From Bacteroidota bacterium (GTDB taxonomy: Bacteria > Bacteroidota > Bacteroidia > UBA8524): a stretch of 64,000 bases of DNA. The stretch spans positions 38,156 through 102,155 of the forward strand of contig SBGR01000012.1 in assembly GCA_006226545.1 (NCBI GenBank). Reading direction: 5' to 3'. Positions 8,842-32,591 of the stretch are shown here, piece after piece. The position numbers and the translations under genes are program-made. The first letter of the stretch is position 1. Every line of letters begins with the position of its first letter. The notes below the pieces were generated by a model. It worked only from the letters and a program-made list of their open reading frames with translations, was not told the DNA's origin and did not search any database.

Positions 8842-8845
8842 GCAC

Positions 8846-10192: not shown

Positions 10193-10195
10193 GCG

Positions 10196-11383: not shown

Positions 11384-12455
11384 AGTGATTATTTCTGGAG
11401 GAGGTACCGGCGGACATATTTTCCCGGCTGTAGCGATAGCCAATGAGATAAAGTCGCGCTACCCGGATTGTGAGATTCTCTTCATCGGAGCGAAAGGCCG
11501 CATGGAGATGCAGAAAGTGCCGCAGGCCGGATACCAAATCGAAGGATTGGATATTGCCGGATTGCAGCGCAAGCTAGATCCGAAGAATTTGTTGTTGCCG
11601 TTTAAGGTGATTAAAAGTTTGCTTCAAGCGAGAAGTATCATCAAGCGATTTAAACCTGAGGTGGCTGTGGGGGTTGGAGGTTATGCTTCAGCGCCTATGT
11701 TGTTCATGGCTCAGATGGCGGGCATCCCGACACTGATTCAAGAGCAGAACAGTTTTGCCGGTTTAACAAACCGCATCCTCGCTAAACGTGCGAAAAAGAT
11801 TTGTGTTGCCTATCCAAATATGGATCAGGTATTCCAGGCAGAGAAGATTGTTTTAACCGGGAATCCGGTAAGAAAAGACATCGCTTCCGGTCAAGCCAGT
11901 AGAGAAGAAGCATTGAAGTTCTTTGGCTTGGAAAGCGATAAGCCGGTGCTTTTAGCGATAGGCGGAAGTCTGGGGGCTAGAACCATCAATACTGCCTTGA
12001 AAGAAGGCGCAGAACAAGTTTCCAAGGCGGGTATTCAGCTGCTTTGGCAATGTGGTAAATCGGCTTACCCGAATTTGAAAGACATCAACCAAGGTGGTAT
12101 TCAGGTACATGAGTTTATCCAAAGAATGGACCTGGCTTATGCAGCTGCGGATGTGGTGATTTCCAGGGCCGGTGCTTTATCGGTTAGTGAGCTTTGTTTG
12201 GTTGCGAAGCCTTCCATCTTGGTGCCATCGCCACACGTGGCAGAAGACCACCAAACCAAGAATGCCAAAGTATTGGCCGATGCCGGCGCCGCTATTCTTG
12301 TGAAGGACAGCGAGGCAGGTCAGATCTTGGTAGATGAAGCTATTAGCCTGACCAAACGCGCCGATTTGAAAACGAAACTAAGTAATGCCGTCCGGGGATT
12401 AGCGTATCCTGAGGCTGATAAAAAGATTGTAGACTGTTTAGAAGGTTTGCTATGA
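11376..12455 (+). CDS. murG: undecaprenyldiphospho-muramoylpentapeptide beta-N-acetylglucosaminyltransferase MurG
   Basis: Contains ISGGGTGGHIFPA (the MurG G-loop). The track ORF begins at ATG 11358, but the second ATG at 11376 gives the usual short N-terminus (MRKVIISGGGTGGH). Either start overlaps the ftsW end. Confidence 0.88.
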   Translation: MRKVIISGGGTGGHIFPAVAIANEIKSRYPDCEILFIGAKGRMEMQKVPQAGYQIEGLDIAGLQRKLDPKNLLLPFKVIKSLLQARSIIKRFKPEVAVGVGGYASAPMLFMAQMAGIPTLIQEQNSFAGLTNRILAKRAKKICVAYPNMDQVFQAEKIVLTGNPVRKDIASGQASREEALKFFGLESDKPVLLAIGGSLGARTINTALKEGAEQVSKAGIQLLWQCGKSAYPNLKDINQGGIQVHEFIQRMDLAYAAADVVISRAGALSVSELCLVAKPSILVPSPHVAEDHQTKNAKVLADAGAAILVKDSEAGQILVDEAISLTKRADLKTKLSNAVRGLAYPEADKKIVDCLEGLL

Positions 12456-13810
12456 TAGCTGCGAAACTGAAAGAAGTGTATTTCCTTGGTATTGGAGGCA
12501 TTGGCATGAGCGCCATTGCACGGTATTTCCATGCCCAGGGCATTCGCGTTTCGGGTTACGACAAAACGCCTTCTCCCTTAACCGACGCGCTGATTGCCTC
12601 AGGTATGAAAGTCAGCTTTGATGAATCGGTAGAGGCCTTGCCTGAATCAGTTAAACAAGCTAGCGATGAGGTGCTGCTGGTGTATACACCTGCCATTCCG
12701 GCACAGCACGCGCAGAAAAAGTATTTTGAAGCGCAAGGACGTCGCTTATACAAACGTTCTGAAGTGCTGGGGTTAATTACCCAAAGCAATCCAACTTTGG
12801 CTGTTGCCGGCACACATGGCAAAACAACCACTTCCACCTTGCTTACCCATTTGATGGTGAAGGCAGGTGTAGATTCCACTGCTTTCTTGGGTGGTATCGC
12901 CGTGAATTACGGTAGCAATTATATCCAAGCGAATAACCCGGCTACTGCGCCTGTGATTGTAGAAGCCGATGAATACGATCGCTCTTTCTTAACGCTGCAT
13001 CCCCACATGGCCCTCATCAGTTCCATGGATGCGGATCACTTAGACATCTACGGCGAAAGCAGTGCCTTTGAAGAAGGCTTCAGGCAGTTTGCTTCGCAAG
13101 TGAAAGGGAAGCTTTTTGTAAGGGAAGGTTTAAATCCAGGCAGAACCGATTTCTATACCTACGGAATTAGCGAAACGGCTGATTACTGTGCACTGAACGT
13201 GCGCATTGAAAACGGTGCCTACGTCTTTGATTTGAAGACGCCGGTACAGTTAATTGAAAACCTGAGCTGCGGATTACCTGGAAGGCATAATGTTGAGAAT
13301 GCAGTGGGCGCTTCGGCAATCGCTTTGGAATACGGCATTACGCCGGAACAGCTAAGAGAAGCACTAGCTTCTTACCGAGGTGTGAAGCGAAGGTTTGAGT
13401 ATATCGTTAAAGAAACCGGTAAGGTGTATATCGATGATTATGCTCATCACCCAACTGAGCTTTCTGCCTTTATACAGTCGGCAAAAGAACTCTTTCCAAA
13501 TAAGCCATTGCTGGGCGTGTTTCAGCCGCACTTGTTTACCCGCACCCGCGATTTTATGGAGGGCTTTGCGGAGAGCTTGAGTATGTTGGATACGCTGGTT
13601 TTGATGGACATCTACCCGGCCAGGGAAGAACCCATTGAAGGGATAAACTCATCGGCTTTGCTGGCCCAAGTGAGCATAGCGGATAAGCACTTATTGCCAA
13701 AAGAAGCCATTGTTGATTTTGTAAAAGAAAGAAATCCGGAAATACTCCTAACCATGGGAGCCGGTGATATAGATAGGCTTGTGCCTCAATTGAAGGAGGT
13801 GATGCAATGA
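12452..13810 (+). CDS. murC: UDP-N-acetylmuramate--L-alanine ligase MurC
   Basis: 452 aa with FLGIGGIGMSAIARY (MurC N-terminal) and P-loop GTHGKTTTS. Start overlaps the murG stop (ATGA). Confidence 0.9.
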   Translation: MIAAKLKEVYFLGIGGIGMSAIARYFHAQGIRVSGYDKTPSPLTDALIASGMKVSFDESVEALPESVKQASDEVLLVYTPAIPAQHAQKKYFEAQGRRLYKRSEVLGLITQSNPTLAVAGTHGKTTTSTLLTHLMVKAGVDSTAFLGGIAVNYGSNYIQANNPATAPVIVEADEYDRSFLTLHPHMALISSMDADHLDIYGESSAFEEGFRQFASQVKGKLFVREGLNPGRTDFYTYGISETADYCALNVRIENGAYVFDLKTPVQLIENLSCGLPGRHNVENAVGASAIALEYGITPEQLREALASYRGVKRRFEYIVKETGKVYIDDYAHHPTELSAFIQSAKELFPNKPLLGVFQPHLFTRTRDFMEGFAESLSMLDTLVLMDIYPAREEPIEGINSSALLAQVSIADKHLLPKEAIVDFVKERNPEILLTMGAGDIDRLVPQLKEVMQ

Positions 13811-14583
13811 AGAAATGGTCGATGGTGAAATTGGCGCATCTGATTTTCTGGAGCTTGGCAATTCTAGGTCTTGTCTTAAGCATGGCCTACGTGTCGGGTG
13901 AGGAAAAAGCGCAGCAATGCAGAGATGTGGAGATTCGGATAATGCCGGAGTTGGAAACACATTTTGCAGACCGCGATGATGTGGCTAAGCTGATCAATGG
14001 AAGTGGCAATATGGCGGCCTTGGTGGGCAAGCCTATGCGTACTTTAGACGTTAGCGATATTGAGCGAAACTTGGAAACGAGTCCGTATATACGCAATGCC
14101 GAAGTTTTTGCTGACCTGGATGGTTCGCTCCGGATTGAAGTAGAGCAGAAGAAGCCAATTTTGCGGGTGTTTATGCAACACTCCAAAGGGTTCTATATTG
14201 ATGCGGATGGACATAAGATGCCTTTGTCTACCAAGTACTCTGCTAGGGTACTTACGGTTACCGGTCACGTGAAGGAGGTTTACGGACAAACGGATTCGCT
14301 CAAGATGGATCAGACCGAAGATCTGTATCGCTTGGCACTGTTTATTTCGGAAGACGATTTTTGGAGCAAACAGATCCAAGGAATCTACATTCGGCAAAAT
14401 GGCGATTTCGAGTTATTGCCCTTGGTGGGTGATCAAATTATCCTTTTCGGTGGTGTAGATCGAATGGAAGAAAAGTTTAAAAATCTGTGGTTGTTCTACC
14501 GCAAGGCCATGAACCTGGTAGGGTGGGACACCTATAAAGTGATTAATTTAAAGTACAGTGGTCAGGTAGTGTGCGAAAAATGA
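13807..14583 (+). CDS. ftsQ: cell division protein FtsQ (POTRA-containing)
   Basis: 258 aa with a single N-terminal TM helix (LAHLIFWSLAILGLVLSMAYV) and a periplasmic POTRA-like region. Positioned between murC and ftsA. Start overlaps the murC stop. Confidence 0.75.
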   Translation: MKKWSMVKLAHLIFWSLAILGLVLSMAYVSGEEKAQQCRDVEIRIMPELETHFADRDDVAKLINGSGNMAALVGKPMRTLDVSDIERNLETSPYIRNAEVFADLDGSLRIEVEQKKPILRVFMQHSKGFYIDADGHKMPLSTKYSARVLTVTGHVKEVYGQTDSLKMDQTEDLYRLALFISEDDFWSKQIQGIYIRQNGDFELLPLVGDQIILFGGVDRMEEKFKNLWLFYRKAMNLVGWDTYKVINLKYSGQVVCEK

Positions 14584-14623
14584 GTAAAACTGCTTGACTT
14601 AAACAAGTATTATTGAGATAGGT

Positions 14624-15958
14624 ATGCAAAACGGGAAAATCATCGTAGGCCTCGACATCGGTACCACCAAGGTATGTGCAATCGTAGGTCGCTACAACGA
14701 ATTTGGAAAGGTAGACGTGCTGGGCATGGGCCGCGCGGATTCTCATGGGGTTTCCCGTGGGGTAGTGGCGAACATTGCCAAGACCGTTGAGGCCATCAAC
14801 AAGGCAGTGGAAGAAGCTGCTGAAAAGTCGAGCGTTGACATCGCTAGAGTGCATGTTGGAATAGCCGGACAGCATATCCGCAGCCTTCAGCACCGAGGTA
14901 TCATTGCCCGCAGCGATGTGGATAACGAGATTAATCAGTCGGATTTGGACAAATTGGAAGCAGACATGCACAAATTGGCCATTGCCCCGGGTGATGAAAT
15001 TTTGCACGTTTTGCCGCAAGAATATACCGTAGACAATGAGCCGGGTATCAAAGACCCAATCGGCATGAGCGGAATCCGTTTGGAAGGAAACTTCCATGTG
15101 ATTACAGCTTCCATGGCGGCGGCTAAAAACATTTATAAATGTGTTACTCAAGGCGGACTAGAAGTAGAAGACCTGATCTTAGAACCTTTGGCTTCGGCTG
15201 ATGCGGTTTTGAGTCAGGAGGAAATGGAAGCCGGTGTTGCTTTGGTTGACATAGGTGGTGGTACCACAGACATTGCCATTTTCCACGAAGGCATCATTCG
15301 CCATACTGCCGTTATCCCGTACGGTGGTAATGTGATTACAGATGACATCAAAGAAGGATGCAATGTGCTGCGTGACCATGCCGAACTCTTGAAAGTGAAA
15401 TTTGGTTCTGCCTTGGCAGATGAAACCAAGCCAAATGAGATTATCACCATTCCGGGTTTGCGTGGAAGAGAGCCAAAAGAAATCAAAGTGCGCACCTTAG
15501 CGAATATCATCCAAGCTAGGGTAGAAGAGATCTTTGAACTGGTTTACTGTGAGATCAAAAACTCCGGATTGGAGAAAAAGTTAATAGGTGGTATTGTAAT
15601 CACCGGTGGTGGTGCTCAACTGAAGCACGTTACTCACTTGGTAGAATACATTACCGGACTGGATGCACGTATCGGTTACCCGAACGAGCATTTAGCGAAA
15701 GGCATGGTTGAAGAAGTGAAGAGCCCGATGTATGCAACAGCCATTGGTTTGTTGATGAAAGGGTTGAAAGCAACCGATAAGCCGAATAAGTTTAATGGTA
15801 CTAGCAGTAACTCAGTCGGACGTGGTAAGTCGGCTGAGGACACTCGCTTGGACCGTGATGAGAAAATGAAACAAGAGTCGAGCAATTACCTGAGCAAACT
15901 CAAAAGCAAGTTTGATACATGGTTGCGTAGCGATTCAGATTTTGAAGACTATAATTAA
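14624..15958 (+). CDS. ftsA: cell division protein FtsA (actin-like ATPase)
   Basis: MQNGKIIVGLDIGTTKVCAIVG (phosphate-1 motif) and VDIGGGTTDIAIF (phosphate-2). 444 aa. Confidence 0.92.
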   Translation: MQNGKIIVGLDIGTTKVCAIVGRYNEFGKVDVLGMGRADSHGVSRGVVANIAKTVEAINKAVEEAAEKSSVDIARVHVGIAGQHIRSLQHRGIIARSDVDNEINQSDLDKLEADMHKLAIAPGDEILHVLPQEYTVDNEPGIKDPIGMSGIRLEGNFHVITASMAAAKNIYKCVTQGGLEVEDLILEPLASADAVLSQEEMEAGVALVDIGGGTTDIAIFHEGIIRHTAVIPYGGNVITDDIKEGCNVLRDHAELLKVKFGSALADETKPNEIITIPGLRGREPKEIKVRTLANIIQARVEEIFELVYCEIKNSGLEKKLIGGIVITGGGAQLKHVTHLVEYITGLDARIGYPNEHLAKGMVEEVKSPMYATAIGLLMKGLKATDKPNKFNGTSSNSVGRGKSAEDTRLDRDEKMKQESSNYLSKLKSKFDTWLRSDSDFEDYN

Positions 15959-15973
15959 TTAAAGACCCATAGT

Positions 15974-17398
15974 ATGAGCAGAGAACCTAAATTTATCGTC
16001 GACCTGCCTAAAGACCGTTCCTCTATTATTAAGGTAATCGGTGTAGGTGGTGGCGGAAGCAATGCGGTGAACCACATGTTCCGTCAAGGTATTGCCGGTG
16101 TCGACTTCTTCGTATGCAATACCGATGGTCAGGCTCTGGATTTATCTCCGGTGCCGAATAAGATTGCCATAGGCAGTAACTTAACAGAAGGACTTGGAGC
16201 GGGCAGCGAACCGGAAATCGGTAAGAAAGCCGCTTTAGAAAGTATAGAAGACATCATCGACAGATTGGGTGTGAACACCAAAATGTTGTTTGTAACAGCA
16301 GGTCTTGGTGGTGGTACCGGAACGGGTGCTGCACCGGTGGTAGCTAAAACAGCAAAGGAACTTGGCATTCTGACTGTAGCCATCGTTACTACGCCTTTTG
16401 GCTTTGAAGGAAAGAAAAGGATAGATCAAGCGATGAACGGATTGGAAGAAATCCGCCGTTGCGTTGATGCCTTATTGATTATCTCCAACGATAAGTTGAA
16501 AGAGATGTACGGCAATCTATCGCTAAGCAATGCATTTAACCATGCAGATAACGTCTTGACCATTGCGGCCAAGGGTATCGCTGAGATCATTACTTTAAAA
16601 GGTATAATGAACGTCGATTTTGCCGACGTGAAAACAGCCATGACCGATAGCGGTGTTGCTATCATGGGTAGTGGAATGGCAGAAGGAGAAGATCGTGCTA
16701 TCAAAGCAGCAAGAATGGCATTGGAATCGCCTTTGCTCGACGAGAACCAAATTCGCGGTGCGAAGAATATCCTTTTGAACATTACGTATGGCTCTGAAGA
16801 AATCTTGATGGAAGAAGCAGCTCGCATCAACGAGTTCTTCCAGGAAGAGGCAGGCATGACAGCGAACTTGAAGTGGGGCTACTGCAAAGATGAATCGTTA
16901 GGTAAAAAGCTTTCGGTTACGATTATCGCTACAGGTTTTGAGGCGAGAGAAAATACCTTACGTACTCCGGAGATGGATGCGATTAAGTTTCCATTGAAAG
17001 AGGAACAAGCAGAGGAAATAGAAGATACTGTTGCTCCTGAGCCAAATGTCCAGCCTAGACTCTTTGATGAGACGGAGATGGCCAAGCGCGAAGAAGAGCG
17101 TCACCATAAGATTTTGGAGGAGCGTATCGCGCAAGAAGAACAAGAGCTTGAAGCAGATCGTATTCGAAGAATCAAAGAACGCATGCAGCAATTGCGTAAT
17201 ATCTCCAGTATTTACAATACTGCTGAAGGCGTAAATGAGCTTCATGATCAGCCGGCTTACCAGCGTAGAAACGTGAAGTTGGATGAGCCTACACCCTCAG
17301 ATGAAAGTGGTGTGAGCAAATACTCTCTCTTTGAAGACGAGGAGAAGAAGCCGGAGATTCGGAAGAATAACTCCTTTTTCCATGATAATGTGGATTAG
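15974..17398 (+). CDS. ftsZ: cell division GTPase FtsZ with a long charged C-terminal linker
   Basis: GVGGGGSNAVN and the tubulin signature GGGTGTGAAP. The long E/R-rich C-terminal region is typical of Bacteroidota FtsZ. Confidence 0.95.
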   Translation: MSREPKFIVDLPKDRSSIIKVIGVGGGGSNAVNHMFRQGIAGVDFFVCNTDGQALDLSPVPNKIAIGSNLTEGLGAGSEPEIGKKAALESIEDIIDRLGVNTKMLFVTAGLGGGTGTGAAPVVAKTAKELGILTVAIVTTPFGFEGKKRIDQAMNGLEEIRRCVDALLIISNDKLKEMYGNLSLSNAFNHADNVLTIAAKGIAEIITLKGIMNVDFADVKTAMTDSGVAIMGSGMAEGEDRAIKAARMALESPLLDENQIRGAKNILLNITYGSEEILMEEAARINEFFQEEAGMTANLKWGYCKDESLGKKLSVTIIATGFEARENTLRTPEMDAIKFPLKEEQAEEIEDTVAPEPNVQPRLFDETEMAKREEERHHKILEERIAQEEQELEADRIRRIKERMQQLRNISSIYNTAEGVNELHDQPAYQRRNVKLDEPTPSDESGVSKYSLFEDEEKKPEIRKNNSFFHDNVD

Positions 17399-18094: not shown

Positions 18095-21000
18095 ATGAAA
18101 GTACAACAACGAAGACTATCTTTTCTCAAACAATTAAAGCTGCACCACATTTGGTTGCTGGCTGTATTAATTGTTAATCCGGTTCTGCTGCATGGGCAGA
18201 ATTACTGTGTGCCTACCGTGGTCAATCAAGCCAATTACAACCTCGGTATTGCCAATGTATCCCTAGGGAGTATTTCCAATAATACTGGAACTCCAAATCC
18301 TAACAATTATTATGTTGATTATTCTCAGACGCACATTACAACTGCGAATCCGGGTGCATTTATCAACTACACCTTAACAGCGGGTAATTCAAACAATACC
18401 CGTTTTTCCATTTTTGTCGACTGGAACCAGGATGGCACTTTTGGCGTTGGTAACTCAGAGCAGGTTATGCTCTCAGGAACAATCAATCCCAATCAGAGTA
18501 CCTCGGGTTCTTTTCAGGTTCCTGTTTCACAAACAGCAGGAGTTTACCGCATTAGAATTGTGGGCGACTTGGGTAGTCAGACGATCAATCCGTGTGTATT
18601 GAATTATACCGGTGACATTGAAGACTATACCTTAATCGTAACTTCTCCGGCTGTAGACATAGTTGGTGTAAGTTCACCTACGGTTCCATCTTTAGGAAAC
18701 GCGGCCGTTGAGTTAAAGGTGGCGAACATTTCAAATGGTACTGTAATTAATACCTATGAAATTGGGTATCGTTTGGACAATGGTACACCGGTAACTGAGA
18801 ACTTGAACACGCAGAACTTGGCTCCTGCTTCTTTGAGGGATCATACCTTCGGTACTTTATTAAACATTACAACTCCGGGTACTTATACTTTAAAGGTATG
18901 GGCAAGAAACCCGAATGGCTTAGGTTCAGGTACTGCATCAAATGATACGGTATACAAAACCTTTAAGTTGTGCTATCCAATCAGTGGTAATTTCACCATT
19001 AACCCAAATGGGGTTGGCCCAAATAACTTCACCTCATTTACAGATGCGGTGAACCAAATTGTGGATTGTGGTATCAATGGTCCGGTACACTTCGCTGTTG
19101 CTGCCGGAACTTACAATGAGCAAATCACAATTCCATTTATCAATGGTTCTTCTGCAACGAATACAGTAACCTTTGATGGTGGAGCCGGAAATTACCTAAC
19201 GCGTGTATTGTCTTTCAATACGGTTGATATTAACAACAGACACGTTGTGCGTATTGATGGGGCGGCTTATGTTAGCTTCAGAAACTTAAGTATCAGATCA
19301 ACAGGTGCCAGCTACGGATGGCCAGTTCACATTAAAGCGAACTCGCAACATGTCACTTTCGCTCGAAATCTGATTCAATCTGCCGATTACAATACAAGCA
19401 CAGGTAGCACGAACTTTATTCCTGTATGTATCTCAGGCTCTAATACATCGTATTCAAGTCCAGCCTCAAACACCAACAATGTTCGTATCGATAGTAATAT
19501 CATCCAAGGAGGTTATTTCAACTTTACCATGTGGGGTGGTGGAACTAGCACCAATAACTACGATATCTGGGTGAGAAGAAACATCCATGAAGCATTTTAC
19601 TACTATGGTTTATATGCGGTAAACTTGAGTAATATCCATATTCAGTGGAACCAATTCACTCAACGGGCAACCACTACTACAGGCGGATACGGTATTAGCC
19701 TATCAAGCATTAACTCTTCAGGTAACTTGATTACAGAGATTGAAGGAAACGACATTAGACGTAGCCATCAATACGGTATCTACCTTTCAAGTGTAAACAA
19801 CAATGGACAACGTGGAAAGTTGATTAACAACATGGCGGGTGCCGGTGCGGTTAGCACAGCTGCTATTACATGTTACATGACAAGCTCAAGCAACTTCGAC
19901 GTTTGGCACAATACCTTTGTCAACCCATCTGCAACAACAGGTACTAACAATGCTGCTTTGTATATCAATAGCAGTAACAATGCTTCGGTATTAAACAATA
20001 TCTTTAATCCAAGTTCAGTTGGTTCTTCAGCGTATGCCGTGTATGCAACGAGTACAACGCAATTTGCAGCCTTTGATTACAATAACTTCTACAAAGAGGG
20101 GTCAGATGTAAGTACTCCATTAATTTGGATGAACAACGTATTGCTTAATGCAAAATCGCTTGTTGGTGCTTCCGGATTTAACGTAAACAGTATTTCCGAG
20201 TCTCCATTGTTTATCTCCAATACAAACTACAGACTGAGCGCCAATGGTCAATCACCATTTGGTTCAGGAAACCTTGGCTTAACGGAAGACATCGATGGTG
20301 ACGTTAGATGTACTTTATTCCCATCTATTGGTGCGGATGAGTCGCCGTTTTCTGTTGCAAACCAGCCGAACATCATCATGCCGGATACGGTTTATGTTAA
20401 TTCACCAACCCCAATCTATAACTCGGCTAGCGCAGGTGAAGCGAAAAACCACGTTTGGACAATCAACGGTGGTGCCGCTGTATTTAATTCAGTGCACGTC
20501 AACTATACTTTCAATCTAGTTGGACTTTATGATGTTAAGTTAAGCACGGAGTCATGCTCCGGTACAGATACCGCATACAAGCAAGTGGTTGCTGTGGTTC
20601 CAACTCAGGCCCCTGTTTCTGCTTTCTTGGCAGATCAGAACGAAGCGGATCAAGGTTACCCTGTTCAATTCACGGATCAGAGCACCGGCGGTCCTTCTAG
20701 CTGGGTTTGGTCTATTACTCCGGCTACCGGCGTACAATTCTTAGGTTCTTCTAACGACCAAAATCCTAGCGTTGTTTTCAACCAAGTAGGTGAGTATGAA
20801 GTTTGTTTAATCGCTTCAAATATTGCTGGTCAGGGCAACCAACTTTGCCGCACCGCTTATATCCGTGTGGGTGAAGCCAATAATATGTGCGACCAAAAGA
20901 CGGTAAGTAAATCGCCTACAGGTAAGATCTTTGATACAGGCGGACGTAATGGCGACTATGCTAACGGAAGCAACTGTGGATTTTTGATCGATCCTTGTGC

Positions 21001-23644
21001 AAGCTCAGTTACATTGAGATTCTCAGCATTCAATTTGGATGCAGGTGATTACCTCCGTGTATTTGACGGTGCAGATGACATGGGTACTCCGTTGTATACT
21101 GGTGCCGGATTTACCGGTAGCATTGTTCCAACCGACTTAACTGCGTCAACCGGTAAAATGTATTTGCAGTTTATCAGTAACGGATCCGGTACACTTTCTG
21201 GATTTGAAGCAGCTTGGACATCCACAGCGAAAAATTTCGCTGCACCAGTAGCTGCATTCCGTGCTCCGGATACCCTTTATGTAGGAACAACCTTTACCTT
21301 CTTGAGTAACTCAACCGGTATTGATCCGGAGTTGAGATGGGATTTTGATAACGACGGTAATATTGATGCTACCGGAAGAACAGCTTCTCATACATTCACT
21401 ACCATCGGAACCCAATTGGTTCGTTTGACCATTGAAGATTGCGGTGGCCTTGACGGTGCTGTTAAAGCGATTACTGTTATTGCTCCTACAGCTGCTCCTT
21501 CACCTGATTTTGTGAGCGATTTCCGTACCATTACCTCAGGTCAAACGGTACGTTTCTACGATCGTTCTACTCAAGCTCCAGATTCTTGGGAGTGGATTTT
21601 TGCTCCAAACAAAGTAACCTTCATGGAAGGTACGGATATGTATTCTCAGAATCCTGTTGTTCGCTTTGATAGCGTTGCCAGCTACGATGTTACCTTAAAT
21701 GCATCGAATAGCTTCGGTACAGGAACTATTACAAAGAATGCAGCAATTCGTTCTGTTCAATATTGCTACCCTGGTGCAGGTTTGAATACCGACCTAGGTA
21801 TCACACGTGTAACATTTGCCGGTATCGACCAAGTATCACTTGTTGGTCCGGCTACCTATAGCGATTACTCTTTGAGCGTGGCTCCTGCTGCGGTACAAAA
21901 AGGATCTAGATATCCGATCATCATTGAAAGAGCAACTGCTAATGAAGACATGAGTCGTAAGGTATGGATCGACTTTAACGGTGATGGTGTATTTGGCCCA
22001 ACTGAAGAAGTAGCTTCTCATACTGCTGACAAATCATTGATGTGGATGGATTCCATTACCATTCCGGTAAGTGCGCAAGAAGGTTCTACCAGAATGCGTA
22101 TCGGAACAAGTTACGGTATCACGAATAACAGCGCTTGTGGTGTAAACCCTTACGGTGAGTTTGAAGACTATACTATTAACATCTACGAAAACTTAACCAG
22201 ACCGGTAATTACCTTGAATGGTTCTTCCGTGGTTTCGATTGAAGTAGGTTCAAACTACAACGACTCAGGTGCTACAGCTATGGATGATGTAGACGGTAAC
22301 TTATCGGCCTTCATCATTACAACTACCAACTTGAATACTCAGGTAGTTGGTACTTACTATGTTCGCTACAATGTTTCCGATAACAACGGTAACAGTGCGG
22401 AAGTTGAGCGTACGGTATACGTTACACCAGATATCACTCCTCCAGTGGTAACCTTGAATGGAACTACGCCAATGGCAGTGGTTGTTGGTACTCAATTTAT
22501 TGACCCAGGTGTTAATGCAATTGATTCTTACGACGGTGTAATTCCGGCTAGCGGAATCCAAGTATTCGGAACAGTGAACTCTTTGCAATTGGGTCAATAC
22601 ACTTTGACTTATACTGCAACGGATCAGGCCGGTAACATGGCCAGCGTTGTACGTATTGTGAATGTGGGTGATACCACCGTTCCACAGTTGTACTTGAAAG
22701 GTGCTGATACCATTGTAATCGCACTTGGACAAACCTTTGTAGATCCGGGTATTGTCGTATTAGACAATAACTCAAGCAACCTACCATTCAATGTAGACTA
22801 TACTGTTATTGACAATAGCGTAGTAGGTGATTATACTTTGACCTATACAGCAGTAGACAGTTCAGGTAATGTGGCTGTTCCGGTTTACCGTGTGGTTGCA
22901 GTGAGAGACTTAACGGCGCCTGTATTGAGCCTGGTAGGTGATACCGTTATCATCGAAGTGCATACTGCATTTGTTGATCCGGGTTACCATGTTAGCGATA
23001 ACTACGACCAAACTGTTCCAGTAAATGTTAATGGAGCTGTTGACACGGCCAAAACAGGTTTGTATGTGCTTTTCTACCAAGCAACAGACCAAGGTGGAAA
23101 CAACTCGGCTTTGCTTTACAGAATCGTACAAGTTCGTGATACGAAAGCGCCGGTTATCTCTTTGAATGGCGACAAATTCGTTACCCTCTGCCGTTGGGAA
23201 AGTTATACTGATCCGGGTTATACCGTGAGCGATAACTATGACCTAACTATTGAGGTAGAAGTTGAAAGCAGCTTGAAAGTGGAAACTGAAGGCTTGTACA
23301 GCATTCGCTATACAGCGCGCGATAAGGCGGGTAACGTAGCGATTGCAGCTGAACGCTTGATTAGAGTTATCGCTTGTGTAAACGGTGTAGCTCAGGCAAG
23401 TGAAAATCAAATTGAAGTTTATCCTAACCCAGGCCGCGGTGTATTCACCGTTCGCTTGAATGATGTAGCGACTCCAAGCGAAGTTAAAATCAGTGATTTG
23501 ACAGGTAAGATTTTGGATATCGCAGTTCAGCCAAGTACTGAAGGTGCGCAATTCGACATGACGCAGTTGCCTGCCGGTACCTACATGGTGATGGTGAACA
23601 CTTCAACAGGTCTAATCACTAAACGCATTCAAGTTATTCACTAA
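18095..23644 (+). CDS. giant secreted surface protein A (~1850 aa): signal peptide, GEVED, CARDB/Ig-like, beta-helix, PKD x2, CUB-like, PKD x2, GEVED, DUF5011/HYR-like x~6, T9SS type-A C-terminal sorting domain
   Basis: Track start 18062 is TTG; ATG 18095 gives the signal peptide MKVQQRRLSFLKQLKLHHIWLLAVLIVNPVLLHG-QN. Motifs seen include GDIEDYTLIV and GEFEDYTINIY (GEVED ends), IGADE (end of beta-helix), WDFDNDG (PKD), and repeated P.VITLNG…DPG…DNYD units. The C-terminus IEVYPNPGRGVFTVRL…GTYMVMVNTSTGLITKRIQVIH is a T9SS CTD. Confidence 0.9.
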   Translation: MKVQQRRLSFLKQLKLHHIWLLAVLIVNPVLLHGQNYCVPTVVNQANYNLGIANVSLGSISNNTGTPNPNNYYVDYSQTHITTANPGAFINYTLTAGNSNNTRFSIFVDWNQDGTFGVGNSEQVMLSGTINPNQSTSGSFQVPVSQTAGVYRIRIVGDLGSQTINPCVLNYTGDIEDYTLIVTSPAVDIVGVSSPTVPSLGNAAVELKVANISNGTVINTYEIGYRLDNGTPVTENLNTQNLAPASLRDHTFGTLLNITTPGTYTLKVWARNPNGLGSGTASNDTVYKTFKLCYPISGNFTINPNGVGPNNFTSFTDAVNQIVDCGINGPVHFAVAAGTYNEQITIPFINGSSATNTVTFDGGAGNYLTRVLSFNTVDINNRHVVRIDGAAYVSFRNLSIRSTGASYGWPVHIKANSQHVTFARNLIQSADYNTSTGSTNFIPVCISGSNTSYSSPASNTNNVRIDSNIIQGGYFNFTMWGGGTSTNNYDIWVRRNIHEAFYYYGLYAVNLSNIHIQWNQFTQRATTTTGGYGISLSSINSSGNLITEIEGNDIRRSHQYGIYLSSVNNNGQRGKLINNMAGAGAVSTAAITCYMTSSSNFDVWHNTFVNPSATTGTNNAALYINSSNNASVLNNIFNPSSVGSSAYAVYATSTTQFAAFDYNNFYKEGSDVSTPLIWMNNVLLNAKSLVGASGFNVNSISESPLFISNTNYRLSANGQSPFGSGNLGLTEDIDGDVRCTLFPSIGADESPFSVANQPNIIMPDTVYVNSPTPIYNSASAGEAKNHVWTINGGAAVFNSVHVNYTFNLVGLYDVKLSTESCSGTDTAYKQVVAVVPTQAPVSAFLADQNEADQGYPVQFTDQSTGGPSSWVWSITPATGVQFLGSSNDQNPSVVFNQVGEYEVCLIASNIAGQGNQLCRTAYIRVGEANNMCDQKTVSKSPTGKIFDTGGRNGDYANGSNCGFLIDPCASSVTLRFSAFNLDAGDYLRVFDGADDMGTPLYTGAGFTGSIVPTDLTASTGKMYLQFISNGSGTLSGFEAAWTSTAKNFAAPVAAFRAPDTLYVGTTFTFLSNSTGIDPELRWDFDNDGNIDATGRTASHTFTTIGTQLVRLTIEDCGGLDGAVKAITVIAPTAAPSPDFVSDFRTITSGQTVRFYDRSTQAPDSWEWIFAPNKVTFMEGTDMYSQNPVVRFDSVASYDVTLNASNSFGTGTITKNAAIRSVQYCYPGAGLNTDLGITRVTFAGIDQVSLVGPATYSDYSLSVAPAAVQKGSRYPIIIERATANEDMSRKVWIDFNGDGVFGPTEEVASHTADKSLMWMDSITIPVSAQEGSTRMRIGTSYGITNNSACGVNPYGEFEDYTINIYENLTRPVITLNGSSVVSIEVGSNYNDSGATAMDDVDGNLSAFIITTTNLNTQVVGTYYVRYNVSDNNGNSAEVERTVYVTPDITPPVVTLNGTTPMAVVVGTQFIDPGVNAIDSYDGVIPASGIQVFGTVNSLQLGQYTLTYTATDQAGNMASVVRIVNVGDTTVPQLYLKGADTIVIALGQTFVDPGIVVLDNNSSNLPFNVDYTVIDNSVVGDYTLTYTAVDSSGNVAVPVYRVVAVRDLTAPVLSLVGDTVIIEVHTAFVDPGYHVSDNYDQTVPVNVNGAVDTAKTGLYVLFYQATDQGGNNSALLYRIVQVRDTKAPVISLNGDKFVTLCRWESYTDPGYTVSDNYDLTIEVEVESSLKVETEGLYSIRYTARDKAGNVAIAAERLIRVIACVNGVAQASENQIEVYPNPGRGVFTVRLNDVATPSEVKISDLTGKILDIAVQPSTEGAQFDMTQLPAGTYMVMVNTSTGLITKRIQVIH
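20882..21233 (+). other. CUB-like domain inside gene A
   Basis: NMCDQKTVSKSPTGKIFDTGGRNGDYANGSNCGFLIDPCASSVTLRFSAFNLDAGDYLRVFDGADDMGTPLYTG…TGKMYLQFISNGSGTLSGFEAAWTS. The Cys spacing and the G.I.S..YP..Y..N..C.W.I / …F.LE….DYL.V.DG / GF.A.W pattern resemble CUB domains. Confidence 0.5.
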
Positions 23645-23711: not shown

Positions 23712-26700
23712 ATGAAAGCTAGTAATATACGTAAGCTTATGCTCTGGATGCTAGGACTGGCATGGTCAGGACTGGCGCAGGCACAAACATACTGTTCGCC
23801 TGGAGCCACAAACGTTGCGAATTACGGATGTGGTATGCAGGAGGTGACGGTAGGGTCCATGACAAATTCGACTGGACAACCCAATTACCTTAATTACTAT
23901 TCCGATTATTCCTCACAGTTAGGAGCATCTGCAACAGCAGGTGCAATCGTGAACGTATCACTTCGCGCCGGTACCGGTAACTCTTCAAGATTTGGTATCT
24001 ACATCGACTGGAACAAAGACGGGGTCTTTGATGCCTCGGAGCAATTACTCTTAACAGGTACGGTTGGTGCTGGTTCTACTTACAATGGTAACATTACTGT
24101 GCCGGCTGCTCAGTCTACCGGTCTTTACAGAATGCGTATCGTAGGGGATATCAGTTTTGCCACAATTGACCCATGCGCATTGCAGTATACAGGTGAAATT
24201 GAAGACTACAGCTTTAGCGTTGTTGGTGCAAGCCTAGACGTTGCGGCAGTGGCAGGAACCAATTCATTAACTATTGGTAACAATACCCTAGCCTTGAATG
24301 TGGTTAACTTAACCTCGGCAACTACCCTTACCTCTCTTGATTTTGGTTACCGTTTAGATAATAATACTCCGGTTACCGAATCAGTAAATGGTTTGAACAT
24401 TGCCGGTGGTGGTTTCCACGAAAGAATCTTCAATACGGCATTGAATATTTCTACTCCGGGTATTTATACCTTGAAGATGTGGGTTCGTAACCCAAATGGT
24501 AACGGCGCCGGTATTGCCGGTAACGATACTGTAACCTATACTATTCAGGCTTGTTATCCTTTGAATGGTACTTATACCATCGACCCGAACGGATCTGGTG
24601 GTTCAAACTTTACCAGCTTCGCCGATGCGGTGAACTCACTTTCAATTTGTGGTATCAATGGTCCGGTTACGTTTAACGTAGCGGCAACCACATTTACAGA
24701 ACAAGTCAGCATTCCGTTTATTAGCGGCGTATCGTCTACCAATACCATCAACTTTGTTGGTGCCGGTAAGAACGCTACAACTTTAACTTATGGTAGCCAG
24801 ACTACAGATAGTCGCCATACCTTGCGTTTCGATGGTGCTGCTTTTGTGCAGTTCCGCGACATGACAGTTCGCTCAACCAATGGTTCATTTGGTTGGACCA
24901 TTCACCATACCGGTTCAGGTGGTGCGCAAAGCATCTTATTGAACAACTTGTCTATTGAATGTGCCGGCGGTGGCGCTAATACTACTAGCACTAACTTTAT
25001 AGGTGTAGTATACAGTGGTACAAACACAAGCTATACTTCAAACCTATTGGCATTCAATAACCGTGTTGATTCATGCGAAATTGATGGTGGTTACTTCAGT
25101 ATCAGTTTCTATGGTAACACAAGCACAAACGCTAACTATGGTAACTACTTTACTCACAATACCCTTACCAATGCCTACTACTACGGTTTCTATGCAAACT
25201 ACTTGAGTGAAATCAAGATTAAGAACAATACCGTTACTACCCGTACTTCAGGTACCACTACTACGGCTTCTTACGGTATGTATATCGTGAACAGCAATAA
25301 CAGCTATCCTTACCTTCATGAAATTGTAGGTAACAGAATCTACGATTGCGGTCGCTACGGTATTTACTTGAGCTCTACCAGTGGTTCAGTTGGTTCTAAA
25401 GGTATTATGGCCAATAACTTTATTGGTGGTAATTTTAGAAACACAAGTTTGGTAAACGCCATCTACATGAGCTATAGCAGCTGGTGGAATGTTTACTTCA
25501 ACAGTATTCACGTAGACAATAATGTAAACGGTGACGCTATTGGTATTTATGTAAACGGTAGTACAAATACCTTCACGTTGGACGTGCGTAATAACATGAT
25601 CCAAGTAACCGGTAACTCTACTAATCCACTAGCGGTTTATGCAAACTCTCATACACTCTTCTCTGAATTGGACTACAATAACTACTGGGTTACGAATTCT
25701 AGTAACCTGCTATTTGTAGGACAGACTTTGAATAAGAATGGTTTTGTTGGGGTGAATAATATGGACAATAACTCCAAAAATCTAGATGCACCTTACCAAA
25801 GCGCTACCAACCTTCGTTATACCAACGGTTGTATCAGTGGTATCTCTGTATCACAAGTAACCAAAGACATCGATGGTGATAACCGCACAAGCACACCAAA
25901 CATTGGAGCTGATGAGTTTATCAATACTTCAACCAATGATATTGGTATTGCTAAAATCTTAGAACCGGGTTCTCCAGTAACTACGGGTCAGCAAAATGTA
26001 GTTGTTCGTGTTAAAAATTACGGAACAAACACCATCAACTCAGCACAAGTTTCTTATACCTTAAACGGTGGTCAACCGGTAACCATTTCGTGGACCGGTA
26101 CACTATTGCCATGTGGTGAAATTGATGTAACCTTCAGCGGTGCTAATGCTGTGACTATCGGTCCTGGTGTTAATAGAATCAATGCTTACACAGCTCTTCC
26201 AGGTGGTAACTTGGATAACTTCCCTTCAAACGATGAATTGGAATTGACTGTTTGTCCTGCCATGAGCGGAACCTTCAGCATTGATGCAAACGGACAAGGC
26301 GCTAATAACTTCCGCAGCTTCACTGATGCGGTTGATGCCTTATCCTGCAGTGGCTTGAATGGTCCGGTAGTATTAAACGTGGCTCCAGGTACATACATTG
26401 AGCAGATTGCATTGAGAAACATCAACGGTGTTTCGGCTCAGAACAGCATTACCATTCAAGGACAAAGCGGACAAGCAGCTAGCACAGTATTGGGTTATAG
26501 CTCAGTGGTAAGTGCAGCACGTCACACACTATTATTGGATAACATGCAATATGTTACCATTAAAAACTTGACAATTCGCACACTCGGCACTAGCTATGGT
26601 TGGGCCCTCCATTTGATGGGAACAAGCTCAGATATCGCTATTGACTCTTGTAATATTGAAGTATTAGGTGGTGGTTCAACTTCTACCAGTACCAATTTTA

Positions 26701-29700: not shown

Positions 29701-32591
29701 TTGGTGAGCCAGGTGTTTACGATGTTTGTTTGACTGCTCAGAATGCTTTGGGTAGCTCAACTAAAAAATGTAAAACAGCTTACATCACTATCCGCGACGT
29801 AAACAACATGTGTATCGGTAACCAATCATCTTCTGCTACCAGCGGAGAGATTTACGATTCAGGTGGACCGAATGCTTCTTATGGTAACAATGAAAATTGC
29901 GACTTCTTAATTGAGCCTTGCGCAAGCAGCGTAAACTTGAAGTTCACAGAATTCAGCCTTGCTAACGCAGCTCACGTATTGCGCGTTTACGATGGTAGAG
30001 ATGCTACTGGAACCCTGTTAGGTACTTTCTCTAGCACATCAGGATTGCCAGGTGGTACTAACGGTTTGACTGCGAACAGCGGTGCTATGTACTTAGCATG
30101 GCAAACAAGTGCAACTGGTACAGCTAGCGGTTTTGCAGCTCGTTGGACTAGCGTTGCCGATACCAGCAATACTTTGACTGCAGGATTTACTGTACAAGAC
30201 ACTGCTTTTGAGCAAGAGACTGTGCCGTTTAACAATACTTCAGTAGGAAGTGGATTGACCTACAGCTGGGATTTCGATATGGACAGTAACGAAGACAGCC
30301 AAATTGAAGATCCAAGCTTCCAGTATACTGCTGCAGGTACTTACTATCCAGAATTGACTGTAGCGGATGCTTGCGGCCATAGCCAAACAATCAACGATAC
30401 CATCGTTATCGTTACGCCTTCTTCTTCTCCAATCGTAGATTTTGAAGCTGACGCTAAATTGGTATCAACTACCGATGTGGTTTACATCACAGATAAAACT
30501 ACCAATGGTCCGATTGCTTGGACTTATACTTTCTCCCCTAATACGGTGAACATTGTAGGTGGTACAGGTAGAAATCCACAGGTGAGCTTTACTGATACAG
30601 GTTGGTACTCTATTACCTTAGATGCAACCAACGCTGCAGGTACAGCTTCAGCTACAAAAACTTCGTATATCCACGTGGTTGAGCTTTGTGATCCATCTGT
30701 AAACTTGCTTGTACCGGATTTGGGTATCAACCGAGTTACCTTGAATAACATGTCTAACAACTCCAATTCTGGTATCCAAGGTTTCACTAGCTACTTTAAC
30801 TCTACCACAGTTCCGGCTGCTCAACTTGATGCCGGTGGTAACTACAACTTAACTGTTGGACGTAGCAGCACCTTGAACAGAATGAACCGTAAGGCGTGGA
30901 TCGACTTCAATGGCGATGGCGACTTTAACGATGCCGGAGAATTGGTGGGTCATGAAACAGCAGCTTTAACAGCTAGCTGGACTGTAAACTTCACTGTTCC
31001 GGTAACTTCTACAAGAGGTGCGGTACGCATGCGTATCGGTGTTGCTTTTGCAGATTCAACCAACGAACCATGTGGTACAAACTTCTATGGTGAAGTTGAA
31101 GAGTACAGAGTTCAAATCAACGAAGACATCACTGCCCCAGTTATTACTTTGGTGGGATTGAATCCGGTTACCATTGAGCTAGGACAAACCTATGCTGATT
31201 CAGGCGCAACAGCTTTTGATGCGGTTGACGGTAACTTGACAGGTCAGATTATTACTACGAATAACCTGAACATCAACGCTGCAGGTACTTACCAGTACTT
31301 CTACAATGTGAGCGATGCAGCTGGTAATGCTGCTGAGCAGGTAACTAGAACGATCATTGTTCGTCCTGATAATACGCCTCCTGTTCTTCAGTTGAATACT
31401 CCACTTGTAATCACTATTCCTTTGTTGAGCACTTTCACTGAGCCAGGCTGGACCGCTATCGATGCGATCTCAGGTAATGTGAGTGGTACTGTTCAAGTTG
31501 ACAAATCAACTTTCGATAGCACAACTGTAGGTAGCTACAGAGTGGCTTACATCGCTACTGATGGTTTCGCAAATACCGATACGCAATACCGTGTGATTAA
31601 CGTAGTAGACGTTACCGCTCCGGTTATTACGTTGAACGGTGTTAGCCCAATGGATGTTGAAGTATTTACTGCCTTCAATGATCCGGGTGTTAGCGTAACC
31701 GATAACTACGATCCTATTGTGATTGCTCAAGTAAGCAGCAATGTGAACTTGAATGCATTGGGAACTTATACTATCCAATATGCTGCAGAAGATGCTAGCG
31801 GAAACGTAAGCAGCTTGACTAGAACAGTGAATGTGGTAGACAATACCGCTCCAACATTGCAAGTATTCGGTGCCGATACCCTGGTGGTTGAAGTATTTGG
31901 ATCAGTAGCAATGCCTCAGGTATCTGCTAGCGATAACTACGATCAGCATGTTCAAGTGACCATGTCTGGCAACTACGACCTTACTACTTTGGGAGTTTAC
32001 CAAGTAAGCTTTATGGCTGAAGATGCTTCAGGCAATCAATCGGCTTCTGTAAGCCGATTCGTAAAAGTAGTGGATACGGAAATTCCTGTAATTACCTTGA
32101 ATGGTTCATACCTCATCACGGTTGACCGTTGGGGAACATTTACAGATCCAGGTGTAACCATTACAGATAACTACTATACCGGCTTGGTAGCAACCCTTGG
32201 TGGTAACTATGTTGATACAGACGAAGAAGGCTTGTTCTACATCACTTACGATGCGGTGGATAGCTCAGGTAACGTAGCGGCTCAAGTAACAAGAGCAATC
32301 AACGTGGTTTACAACCCAACTTCTGTAGGCTCTAAGGTAGCTGGCGCTAAGTTTAGTCTTTACCCTAACCCGGCAAGAGACTTCGCTGTAATCGATTTCA
32401 ACGACGACTTAAACGAAGAAGTTAGCCTTGAAGTGATGAACGGAATTGGTCAGCAAGTGATCAAGTCAACTGTTCAACTCCAGGGAGGTAAATACACCCT
32501 AAATACCGATGCATTGAAACCGGGTACTTATATCATACTCGTGAACATGAACGGTAGAGTTCGTACTCAAAAATTAATTGTCAACAAGTAA
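23712..32591 (+). CDS. giant secreted surface protein B (2959 aa): same grammar as A but with three consecutive CARDB + beta-helix modules, then PKD x2, CUB-like, PKD x2, GEVED, DUF5011 x~7, T9SS type-A CTD
   Basis: ATG 23712 with signal peptide MKASNIRKLMLWMLGLAWSGLAQA-QT. GEIEDYSFSVV and NFYGEVEEYRVQINE are GEVED ends. Three IGADE(F/G/S) helix ends lie near 25915, 27605 and 29262. The C-terminus FSLYPNPARDFAVIDF…GTYIILVNMNGRVRTQKLIVNK is a T9SS CTD. Confidence 0.9.
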   Translation: MKASNIRKLMLWMLGLAWSGLAQAQTYCSPGATNVANYGCGMQEVTVGSMTNSTGQPNYLNYYSDYSSQLGASATAGAIVNVSLRAGTGNSSRFGIYIDWNKDGVFDASEQLLLTGTVGAGSTYNGNITVPAAQSTGLYRMRIVGDISFATIDPCALQYTGEIEDYSFSVVGASLDVAAVAGTNSLTIGNNTLALNVVNLTSATTLTSLDFGYRLDNNTPVTESVNGLNIAGGGFHERIFNTALNISTPGIYTLKMWVRNPNGNGAGIAGNDTVTYTIQACYPLNGTYTIDPNGSGGSNFTSFADAVNSLSICGINGPVTFNVAATTFTEQVSIPFISGVSSTNTINFVGAGKNATTLTYGSQTTDSRHTLRFDGAAFVQFRDMTVRSTNGSFGWTIHHTGSGGAQSILLNNLSIECAGGGANTTSTNFIGVVYSGTNTSYTSNLLAFNNRVDSCEIDGGYFSISFYGNTSTNANYGNYFTHNTLTNAYYYGFYANYLSEIKIKNNTVTTRTSGTTTTASYGMYIVNSNNSYPYLHEIVGNRIYDCGRYGIYLSSTSGSVGSKGIMANNFIGGNFRNTSLVNAIYMSYSSWWNVYFNSIHVDNNVNGDAIGIYVNGSTNTFTLDVRNNMIQVTGNSTNPLAVYANSHTLFSELDYNNYWVTNSSNLLFVGQTLNKNGFVGVNNMDNNSKNLDAPYQSATNLRYTNGCISGISVSQVTKDIDGDNRTSTPNIGADEFINTSTNDIGIAKILEPGSPVTTGQQNVVVRVKNYGTNTINSAQVSYTLNGGQPVTISWTGTLLPCGEIDVTFSGANAVTIGPGVNRINAYTALPGGNLDNFPSNDELELTVCPAMSGTFSIDANGQGANNFRSFTDAVDALSCSGLNGPVVLNVAPGTYIEQIALRNINGVSAQNSITIQGQSGQAASTVLGYSSVVSAARHTLLLDNMQYVTIKNLTIRTLGTSYGWALHLMGTSSDIAIDSCNIEVLGGGSTSTSTNFIALILNNDPMNTGYAIQFTNISVKNSTIRNGYYGIYTTGNGTGSTNLLLEDNKILTPYYYGIYHNNSNAVTFLNNEVNMRMNNANSYGMYIINTNANSNYYSQINNNKVVNAGRYGIYFSSANNTTSFRGELINNMIGGGFTSTSSRGLALLSSNYWNVWHNSVNVDYQQTSTTAAAFYTSGASYLDVRNNNFALTHPNQNSGSIYPVYMNGSTGLVCDYNNYFKNGSTSNFVRISGVNYNVNNFRGGGGFNVNSYFSEPGFVSAQDLHAGSGCMIAPRLTQVTEDFDGDTRNPSTTIGADEGIELDALVNGLLSPSGTNISGTQDVEFYVKNGGQSTVTSFTAGYMVNGANTVTTNWSGVLNPCDSVLISFTGGQAATIPNSGLVSIAGFIGNVNGTGDDNLLNDTTAGTFCNGPLDGVYTLNATSAAPRNFSDVTSMMAVLNSCGMSGNVEVQVAAGVYSGQIFLNPATISGLGTYTFAMHGIDSASSVITYNGGGYTLRLNGVSNSVFTNLGFENTATSSAFTVHLTNGSDNNLFSHCDISAPSVSNSSVIAYGVFGPSSYSQTGSNWGNNNILEYSTVRGGWIGTNFYGSGNTSIMSQGNTVRNCVITDAYYYGAYNYFQQGSVYTDNRMDIPSTASGVIYFSYCPEVDVQRNILLGGSTYGIYMNQVSPSSGSGQSNIINNMIGGMYTTGTSYGIYNINTYNTRFYHNTVYVSNTSNTGRAFYNSSGSGNQLVNNTFISDAPNGYAMYLSTNNTFTTINYNNLVSASTNLAYTWGSTYFDLPSLQASNTTYNVNSVSTMPQFISQTNVTPDLHINQNWQAPYGDNTLGVTVDVDGDFRCASAKTIGADESGFIDPVSVQFTVNDTVFVNSPFTAINADLPGSLRSYEWDFNNDGSVEFTTLNATYTYNSPGVKQIKLTSRSCNGGDSVIKNVVVVTPTAAPEADFIADMYSAAPFDEVRLQDLSTNGPIGWIWEITPDPNSLIFYDPYDQNPTVFFGEPGVYDVCLTAQNALGSSTKKCKTAYITIRDVNNMCIGNQSSSATSGEIYDSGGPNASYGNNENCDFLIEPCASSVNLKFTEFSLANAAHVLRVYDGRDATGTLLGTFSSTSGLPGGTNGLTANSGAMYLAWQTSATGTASGFAARWTSVADTSNTLTAGFTVQDTAFEQETVPFNNTSVGSGLTYSWDFDMDSNEDSQIEDPSFQYTAAGTYYPELTVADACGHSQTINDTIVIVTPSSSPIVDFEADAKLVSTTDVVYITDKTTNGPIAWTYTFSPNTVNIVGGTGRNPQVSFTDTGWYSITLDATNAAGTASATKTSYIHVVELCDPSVNLLVPDLGINRVTLNNMSNNSNSGIQGFTSYFNSTTVPAAQLDAGGNYNLTVGRSSTLNRMNRKAWIDFNGDGDFNDAGELVGHETAALTASWTVNFTVPVTSTRGAVRMRIGVAFADSTNEPCGTNFYGEVEEYRVQINEDITAPVITLVGLNPVTIELGQTYADSGATAFDAVDGNLTGQIITTNNLNINAAGTYQYFYNVSDAAGNAAEQVTRTIIVRPDNTPPVLQLNTPLVITIPLLSTFTEPGWTAIDAISGNVSGTVQVDKSTFDSTTVGSYRVAYIATDGFANTDTQYRVINVVDVTAPVITLNGVSPMDVEVFTAFNDPGVSVTDNYDPIVIAQVSSNVNLNALGTYTIQYAAEDASGNVSSLTRTVNVVDNTAPTLQVFGADTLVVEVFGSVAMPQVSASDNYDQHVQVTMSGNYDLTTLGVYQVSFMAEDASGNQSASVSRFVKVVDTEIPVITLNGSYLITVDRWGTFTDPGVTITDNYYTGLVATLGGNYVDTDEEGLFYITYDAVDSSGNVAAQVTRAINVVYNPTSVGSKVAGAKFSLYPNPARDFAVIDFNDDLNEEVSLEVMNGIGQQVIKSTVQLQGGKYTLNTDALKPGTYIILVNMNGRVRTQKLIVNK
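29805..30151 (+). other. CUB-like domain inside gene B
   Basis: NNMCIGNQSSSATSGEIYDSGGPNASYGNNENCDFLIEPCASSVNLKFTEFSLANAAHVLRVYDGRDATGTLLGTF…ANSGAMYLAWQTSATGTASGFAARWTS. Collinear with the gene A copy. Confidence 0.5.

Follow-up and report, generated by a model that had tools for sequence, protein, structure and literature searches.

We asked whether four similar modules, found in a cluster of giant secreted-protein genes of an uncultured Bacteroidota bacterium, are true CUB domains and, if so, what they might do there. The locus lies on contig SBGR01000012.1 of assembly GCA_006226545.1 (forward-strand positions 38,156 to 102,155), and this whole stretch of 64,000 nucleotides is here called the window, with positions counted from its first letter. 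The CUB fold is best known from animal extracellular proteins. The first-pass annotation had assigned CUB-like modules to four proteins, here named A, B, C and E and all cargo of the type IX secretion system (T9SS), at 20882-21233, 29805-30151, 34186-34626 and 47171-47512, and in-frame translation of these intervals gave the sequence pattern that it described, which matches the consensus of our four-copy alignment. Scores against Pfam PF00431, profile matches in the PDB and the predicted fold all agreed with that assignment: all four belong to the PF00431 superfamily as true CUB domains, of a subtype with a single disulfide that is bacterial.

Identity and fold of the four modules

The modules, of about 120 aa each, are all encoded on the plus strand, one in each of four paralogous T9SS cargo genes (Table 1), with 34-48% pairwise identity and 22 invariant columns in the four-way alignment. 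When a hidden Markov model (HMM) built from the four copies was run against a six-frame translation of the window, only those four places were found, at E-values from 8e-52 to 6e-60 per domain, the next match being at 0.011, and a general CUB profile made from 570 domain sequences again gave exactly the same four. Over both scans the four domains had E-values of 1e-27 to 1e-60, with the next best match at E>=0.01, which is far beyond chance; no CUB copy was found by these scans in gene D.

With Pfam, PF00431 was the top-scoring family for every module and no other family exceeded its own cut-off. Three of the four copies (A, B and E) passed the PF00431 gathering cut-off of 21.4 bits and covered the full model, and copy C (19.8 bits) fell just under it because of its insertions. 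That copy, with a length of 155 aa, carries insertions of 17, 6, 4 and 4 residues, which fall in loops L3, L5 and L7, one extra Ala ahead of the Cys of a 'PCA' motif, and two additional Cys. It is tied to the other copies by 34% identity and by its score against the general CUB profile.

Searching all PDB sequences with a profile of the four modules retrieved CUB proteins only, led by cubilin (7e-28), neuropilin-1 and -2 (about 4e-14) and PCPE-1 (1.6e-11), with weaker matches to enteropeptidase, TSG-6, Neto2, Kremen1 and the MASPs. An AlphaFold2 model of copy B was all-beta, with a mean predicted local distance difference test score (pLDDT) of 82.7 and a predicted template modelling score (pTM) of 0.81, and its best 50 Foldseek matches in the PDB were all CUB domains, at a template modelling score (TM) of about 0.75. 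By prediction, then, the domain folds as a beta-sandwich of the jelly-roll kind and has the CUB topology, and neither a different fold nor a better-scoring rival family was encountered. No bacterial protein appeared among the CUB-fold PDB matches, all matches among solved structures being animal proteins.

The Cys positions had been said to match the CUB consensus, which proved correct for the first disulfide and incorrect for the second. Residues C8 and C37 were invariant in all four copies and aligned with the first-disulfide cysteines of neuropilin-1 a2, and by this alignment the first canonical disulfide (C8-C37) is kept throughout. For the second canonical disulfide (C3-C4, linking L5 to L7) no Cys was found at either position in any of the four copies; a non-canonical third Cys, that of 'PCA', was invariant among them and was seen in about 9% of related bacterial domains. 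The PKD domain upstream of the CUB has two Cys in A, B and E that are absent in C, and these are therefore more likely paired with each other than with the third CUB Cys. A second disulfide is not strictly defining of the CUB domain, since CUB2 of ADAMTS13 also lacks one, while CUB1 of the same protein has an unpaired Cys (PMC8051872). As for the two additional Cys of copy C, one was found in the 17-residue L5 insertion and the other in L9. In canonical CUBs it is Ca2+ that bridges loops L5 and L9, and copy C may have a putative L5-L9 disulfide in place of the metal.

Metazoan CUBs (PF00431; neuropilin a1/a2, cubilin CUB5-8, TSG-6 CUB_C, PCPE-1 and Kremen1) are the nearest known family, from which the copies in the window differ not only in their cysteines, with the second disulfide missing and the 'PCA' Cys added, but also in having 'D-x-G-G' in place of 'SPnYP', in a Ca2+ triad that none of them has in full, and in their setting, the hosts being bacterial T9SS cargo and the neighbouring domains PKD and GEVED rather than EGF, Sushi or protease.

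Architecture and conservation of the host proteins

Each CUB was found between pairs of PKD domains, as had been noticed at first pass, and segment-wise Pfam scans together with the four-way alignment agreed on one domain order for A, B, C and E, in which PKD-PKD-CUB-PKD-PKD is followed by a linker of about 60 aa and then by GEVED, five Bact_surface_Ig-like repeats and the Por_Secre_tail sorting domain. Several of the PKD matches were under the Pfam cut-off and were assigned by homology to clearer copies, and Pfam resolves four of the Ig-like repeats in E. The distance from the end of the CUB to the C-terminus is fixed at about 805 aa (801, 808, 805 and 813 aa). This C-terminal cassette is 33-38% identical between paralogs and the N-terminal parts of the proteins differ; the shared cassette under differing heads indicates that the four CUBs descend from one ancestral cassette by gene duplication, and not from four independent insertions.

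The proteins are multi-domain, non-enzymatic-looking and secretion-signal-bearing. Type A T9SS sorting domains scored above cut-off (27 bits for PF18962, Por_Secre_tail; 23 bits for TIGR04183), with 39.9-52.5 bits for PF18962 in A, B, C and E and 39-47 bits for TIGR04183 in A, C and E. As read from the sequence, the hydrophobic N-termini of A, B, C and E end ...HG/QNYC, ...AQA/QTYC, ...ASA/QYTS and ...LNA/QSFT, respectively, the hydrophobic segment stopping just before a Gln (at about 18185, 23780, 32735 and 43870). Exposure of an N-terminal Gln after signal-peptide cleavage is a habit of Bacteroidota, which these four N-termini fit.

We compared protein A with its ortholog in another assembly (GCA_900174595.1, contig FWPV01003864.1), where the gene order is the same (1-10569), FtsZ is 95% identical and orthologs of both A and B follow ftsZ. 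Along the protein sequence, identity was 72-77% in the head, 80-87% in the PKDs flanking the CUB, 88.6% in the CUB, 88% in the GEVED region, 80% in the Ig-like repeats and 40% in the sorting domain, which made the CUB the best-conserved segment. Strong purifying selection acts on the CUB, for which nonsynonymous divergence (dN) was 0.083 and the synonymous sites were saturated. Loops L3 and L5 were identical between the A orthologs, and between the paralogs of the window L5, L7 and L9 were the most divergent, a pattern that matches the general rule that odd-numbered CUB loops vary and form the ligand site (PMC8051872).

The ortholog also bears on the start of gene A, where the listed TTG (18062) is probably too far upstream, an ATG at 18095 matching the ortholog start (MKVQQRRL... 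versus MKIQGRRL...). The N-terminal regions of A and B hold a further GEVED-like domain with 31-32% identity to the GEVED region of C, so that GEVED would bracket these proteins at both ends; in the annotation of the A ortholog, GEVED is listed both before and after the CUB.

Table 1. Positions within the window of the CUB domains, their host genes and other features named in the text
Feature	Position	Strand	Detail
CUB of protein A, aa 937-1059	20870-21238	+	PF00431 40.2 bits; own-HMM E 3e-56
CUB of protein B, aa 2027-2151	29790-30164	+	PF00431 39.8 bits; copy used for modelling
CUB of protein C, aa 512-666	34174-34638	+	PF00431 19.8 bits; general CUB profile 81.8 bits
CUB of protein E, aa 1120-1243	47153-47524	+	PF00431 34.0 bits; own-HMM E 6e-60
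Gene A, T9SS cargo protein, 1860 aa	18062-23644	+	GEVED + beta-helix-like N-terminal head
Gene B, T9SS cargo protein, 2959 aa	23712-32591	+	N-terminal GEVED + beta-helix head
Gene C, T9SS cargo protein, 1471 aa	32641-37056	+	BNR_assoc_N + GEVED head
Gene E, T9SS cargo protein, 2056 aa	43796-49966	+	ALK-like TNFL/Gly-rich head, fn3, beta-helix
PKD pair of A, upstream of the CUB, aa ~789-936	20426-20869	+	PKD_4 22.8 and 31.8 bits on segments
PKD pair of A, downstream of the CUB, aa ~1060-1232	21239-21757	+	PKD_4 52.7 bits, 2 stretches
GEVED domain of A, aa 1300-1373	21959-22180	+	PF20009 72 bits
Five Bact_surface_Ig-like repeats of A, aa ~1383-1780	22208-23401	+	Presumed stalk; PF16403 243 bits, 5 stretches
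Type A T9SS C-terminal sorting domain of A	23417-23632	+	TIGR04183 43 bits; PF18962 39.9 bits
Type A T9SS sorting domain of B	32358-32582	+	PF18962 41.1 bits
Type A T9SS sorting domain of C	36826-37041	+	PF18962 40 bits; TIGR04183 39.1 bits
Type A T9SS sorting domain of E	49736-49951	+	PF18962 52.5 bits; TIGR04183 46.7 bits
GEVED-like N-terminal region of A	18200-18650	+	
GEVED-like N-terminal region of B	23790-24220	+	
ALK-like region of E, residues 28-262	43877-44581	+	7mzw_A, E 1.4e-15 (phmmer)
Gene D, 1479 aa	37127-41566	+	SBBP repeats; type B sorting domain
AlgH-like gene	41818-42375	+	
Beta-lactamase2-family gene	42377-43384	-	
Division and cell-wall cluster	4030-17398	+	

Bacterial relatives and the calcium site

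The first-pass view that bacterial copies of CUB are rare did not fit a wider search. An exhaustive profile search of 1.84 billion representatives retrieved 9370 proteins with E<=1e-3, of which 636 had E<=1e-30, and at least 78 of the best 150 cluster representatives bear a T9SS sorting domain like those of the window, in a ranking that was made with a bacterial profile and so favours bacterial relatives. PF00431 was, moreover, already included in the precomputed Pfam annotation of the orthologs on FWPV01003864.1, and NCBI names one relative 'CUB domain-containing protein' (Bdellovibrionota bacterium), other source names being 'PKD repeat protein' and 'Zn-dependent metalloprotease' (Lentimonas sp.). 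Many of the best 150 are long CUB arrays, with up to 33 CUBs per protein. Pfam scans of seven relatives showed CUB-PKD units to recur: after an M4 thermolysin with GEVED, after a Big_1/invasin-like domain, and within a protein that resembles C and has BNR_assoc_N. Narrower queries found little: a word-indexed homolog search with module B alone gave no matches, and a genome scan of GTDB representatives with a single PKD-CUB-PKD query gave only a Chitinophagales metagenome-assembled genome, at 39% identity, and a spurious PKD match in an archaeon.

Among full-length aligned domains, the second disulfide was present in none of 73 T9SS representatives, and 19 representatives were of a two-disulfide, Cys-rich, metazoan-like type. 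The bacterial signature is a single disulfide together with the D-x-G-G loop, with its Asp in 96%, and on the profile bacterial domains scored 60-125 bits versus 25-50 bits for the metazoan type. The single-disulfide CUB subtype recurs in, and is common among, T9SS-exported proteins of Bacteroidota. The other bacterial CUB proteins share with those of the window this subtype, a frequent pairing with PKD and GEVED, and T9SS sorting domains; examples are the subtilisin-CUB protein NP_967057 of Bdellovibrio (PMC2605481), the Bdellovibrionota protein named above, and T9SS proteins combining M4 thermolysin and GEVED with CUB/PKD. They differ in mostly having several tandem CUBs and in the calcium-site triad, present in 63%, whereas the window has single copies with a degenerate triad and the third, 'PCA' Cys. 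A CUB-type beta-sandwich is also known from bacterial alpha-2-macroglobulin (PMC9848320), where it is integral to the thioester-protein machinery, a context unlike the present one, and that domain was absent among both the sequence and the fold matches of our CUBs. In our literature searches, no relevant paper linked CUB domains to type IX secretion or to Bacteroidetes together with PKD, and we met no work on the function of any bacterial CUB of the present type.

The first-pass annotation had also proposed that the putative Ca-binding Asp/Glu positions be checked for conservation, and these turned out not to be conserved. By alignment of the profile to neuropilin-1 a2, the Ca2+-site columns are 57, 61 and 106; known site residues include Glu195 and Asp250 of neuropilin-1 a2 (PMC8155012) and D263, D266 and D306 of Kremen1 (PMC5014086). 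At these three columns copy A has a gap (with an adjacent Asp), Asp and Asn, copy B has Ala, His and Ser, copy C has Ser, Asp and Asn, and copy E has Asn, Asp and Asp. The complete canonical Glu/Asp/Asp triad is accordingly found in none of the four, B having lost all three positions, while the L3 Tyr (column 30) is kept in all of them and the Asp of column 61 in three. On this sequence evidence we did not file the copies of the window under cbCUB, the Ca2+-binding CUB subset, and a canonical Ca2+-mediated ligand mechanism cannot be assumed for them. In 372 CUBs of T9SS proteins, by comparison, the Tyr was present in 99%, Asp61 in 98%, Glu57 in 62%, and Asp106 in 61%, with Asn at that position in another 32%, and the [ED]-D-[DN] triad was retained in 63%, so that the bacterial family at large looks calcium-binding and the copies of the window look like a degenerate variant of it.

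In lacking acidic calcium ligands the copies of the window are like non-Ca2+-binding CUBs such as ADAMTS13 CUB1-2 and the spermadhesins, in which ligand contacts use other surfaces. They show no specific sequence relationship to these beyond the family, and the ADAMTS13 CUBs form a tandem pair whereas each CUB of the window stands single and isolated between PKD domains.

Possible role of the CUB and neighbouring genes

What might these domains do? We think it probable that the CUB serves these adhesin-like proteins of the cell surface as a module for recognition or scaffolding, without catalysis, held in a conserved C-terminal cassette under variable heads, and the first-pass suggestion of a ligand-binding cassette seems a reasonable one. 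In T9SS biology the sorting domain is removed after translocation and the protein becomes anchored on the outer surface. Proteins A, B, C and E would accordingly pass by Sec export and then by T9SS translocation, whereupon the sorting domain would be cleaved off and the protein anchored at the outer surface. The Ig-like repeats and PKD domains would form a stalk, and the CUB, some 805 residues from the C-terminus, would serve as the recognition or scaffold module, its variable odd-numbered loops L3, L5, L7 and L9 being displayed at one end of the beta-sandwich. With the calcium site incomplete in all four copies and wholly lost in B, binding would probably not follow the classical mechanism of Ca2+ plus a basic residue (as in cubilin, C1s and neuropilin), at least in B. 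Several findings weigh against this reading. The CUB sits in the conserved stalk and not in the variable head, a place that would suit a purely structural spacer just as well; with the Ca2+ triad lost, the sole well-understood binding mechanism of CUBs is gone; and no T9SS machinery genes (por, gld or spr) were found within the window.

It is possible, if rather unlikely, that the CUB has no ligand and acts as a passive spacer, a further stiff beta-sandwich in the row by which the stalk gets its length or rigidity. Its constant distance from the anchor, within a conserved cassette and outside the variable head, would suit such a bead, as would the degenerate calcium site and the stringing of up to 33 CUBs in other bacterial proteins. 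Yet the CUB is better conserved against the ortholog than the Ig-like repeats, which are obvious spacers, and its L3 and L5 are unchanged there; furthermore, every one of the four paralogs retains exactly one CUB, even with identity among them down to about 35%.

A canonical Ca2+-binding CUB, which would coordinate Ca2+ by the Glu/Asp/Asp triad and grip a protein ligand by one of its Lys or Arg residues in the manner of cubilin, C1s/MASP and neuropilin, is quite improbable for these copies. The retained Tyr and Asp61, the adjacent Asp that copy A could use and the Asn/Asp/Asp of copy E speak for it, and the triad frequency among related T9SS-protein CUBs makes the mechanism plausible for the family at large. 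However, the Glu position reads gap, Ala, Ser and Asn in the four copies and every acidic position is gone from B, and ADAMTS13 CUBs without these residues bind no Ca2+ and use other surfaces (PMC8051872).

Recent horizontal acquisition from an animal host, serving mimicry or the binding of host matrix proteins, would agree with the metazoan origin of every solved relative, with the listing of CUB as a eukaryote-like domain in sponge-associated archaea (PMC7848895) and with the ALK-like module of protein E, but we rejected it as scarcely credible on composition (G+C of 43-47% in the CUB segments and 42-46% in the host genes) and on the bacterial-specific signature and profile scores given above, the four copies being, besides, old paralogs with orthologs in another assembly, and CUBs being widely spread among bacteria.

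That the single-disulfide CUBs, most of them with the calcium site kept, make up a large, old and uncharacterised bacterial clade centred on T9SS cargo of Bacteroidota is a wider proposal that we regard as doubtful. Should it hold, then together with the ALK-like head of E it would mean that hallmark modules of animal matrix and receptor proteins were in use in bacterial surface adhesins, and it might even be that animals have their modules from the bacterial ones, and not the other way round. At the level of this locus, standard annotation would label the CUBs, and the finding is correct but fairly ordinary; the gain is a clean annotation of four paralogous T9SS surface proteins with a CUB-containing stalk under variable heads. 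It is a point of moderate weight at most that reviews still treat CUB as an animal domain, CUBs of bacteria being numerous and so far unstudied. The gap in knowledge here, on the structure and ligands of such a bacterial domain, is real but modest, and closing it would aid the reading of the many giant 'PKD repeat proteins' that Bacteroidota of marine and fresh waters have.

The head of protein E, at residues 28-262, matches the TNF-like plus glycine-rich region of human ALK, which is an extracellular ligand-binding region, and also LTK (5.9e-7) and SCD-2 of C. elegans (3.7e-5); Pfam-A gave no match at E<=1 for these residues, and the heads of A and C had no matches among PDB sequences. The module occurs as a single copy in the window. 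Modules of this type are structurally similar to the receptor-binding tip of the tail fibre of cyanophage Pam3 (PMC9608196), and by that analogy the ALK-like head is probably an adhesin tip.

Protein D, whose gene stands among those of the four paralogs with type A domains, carries beta-propeller repeats (SBBP) and a T9SS sorting domain of type B (CHU_C / TIGR04131), and had no CUB, PKD or GEVED domain in Pfam and sorting-domain scans. The genes of the giant surface proteins are immediately preceded, on their upstream side, by a complete cluster for division and cell-wall synthesis (ftsI, murE, mraY, murD, ftsW, murG, murC, ftsQ, ftsA and ftsZ), the FtsZ of which has its relatives in uncultured Bacteroidota/Bacteroidia. 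Genes D and E, finally, are separated by an AlgH-like gene and by a Beta-lactamase2-family gene on the opposite strand.

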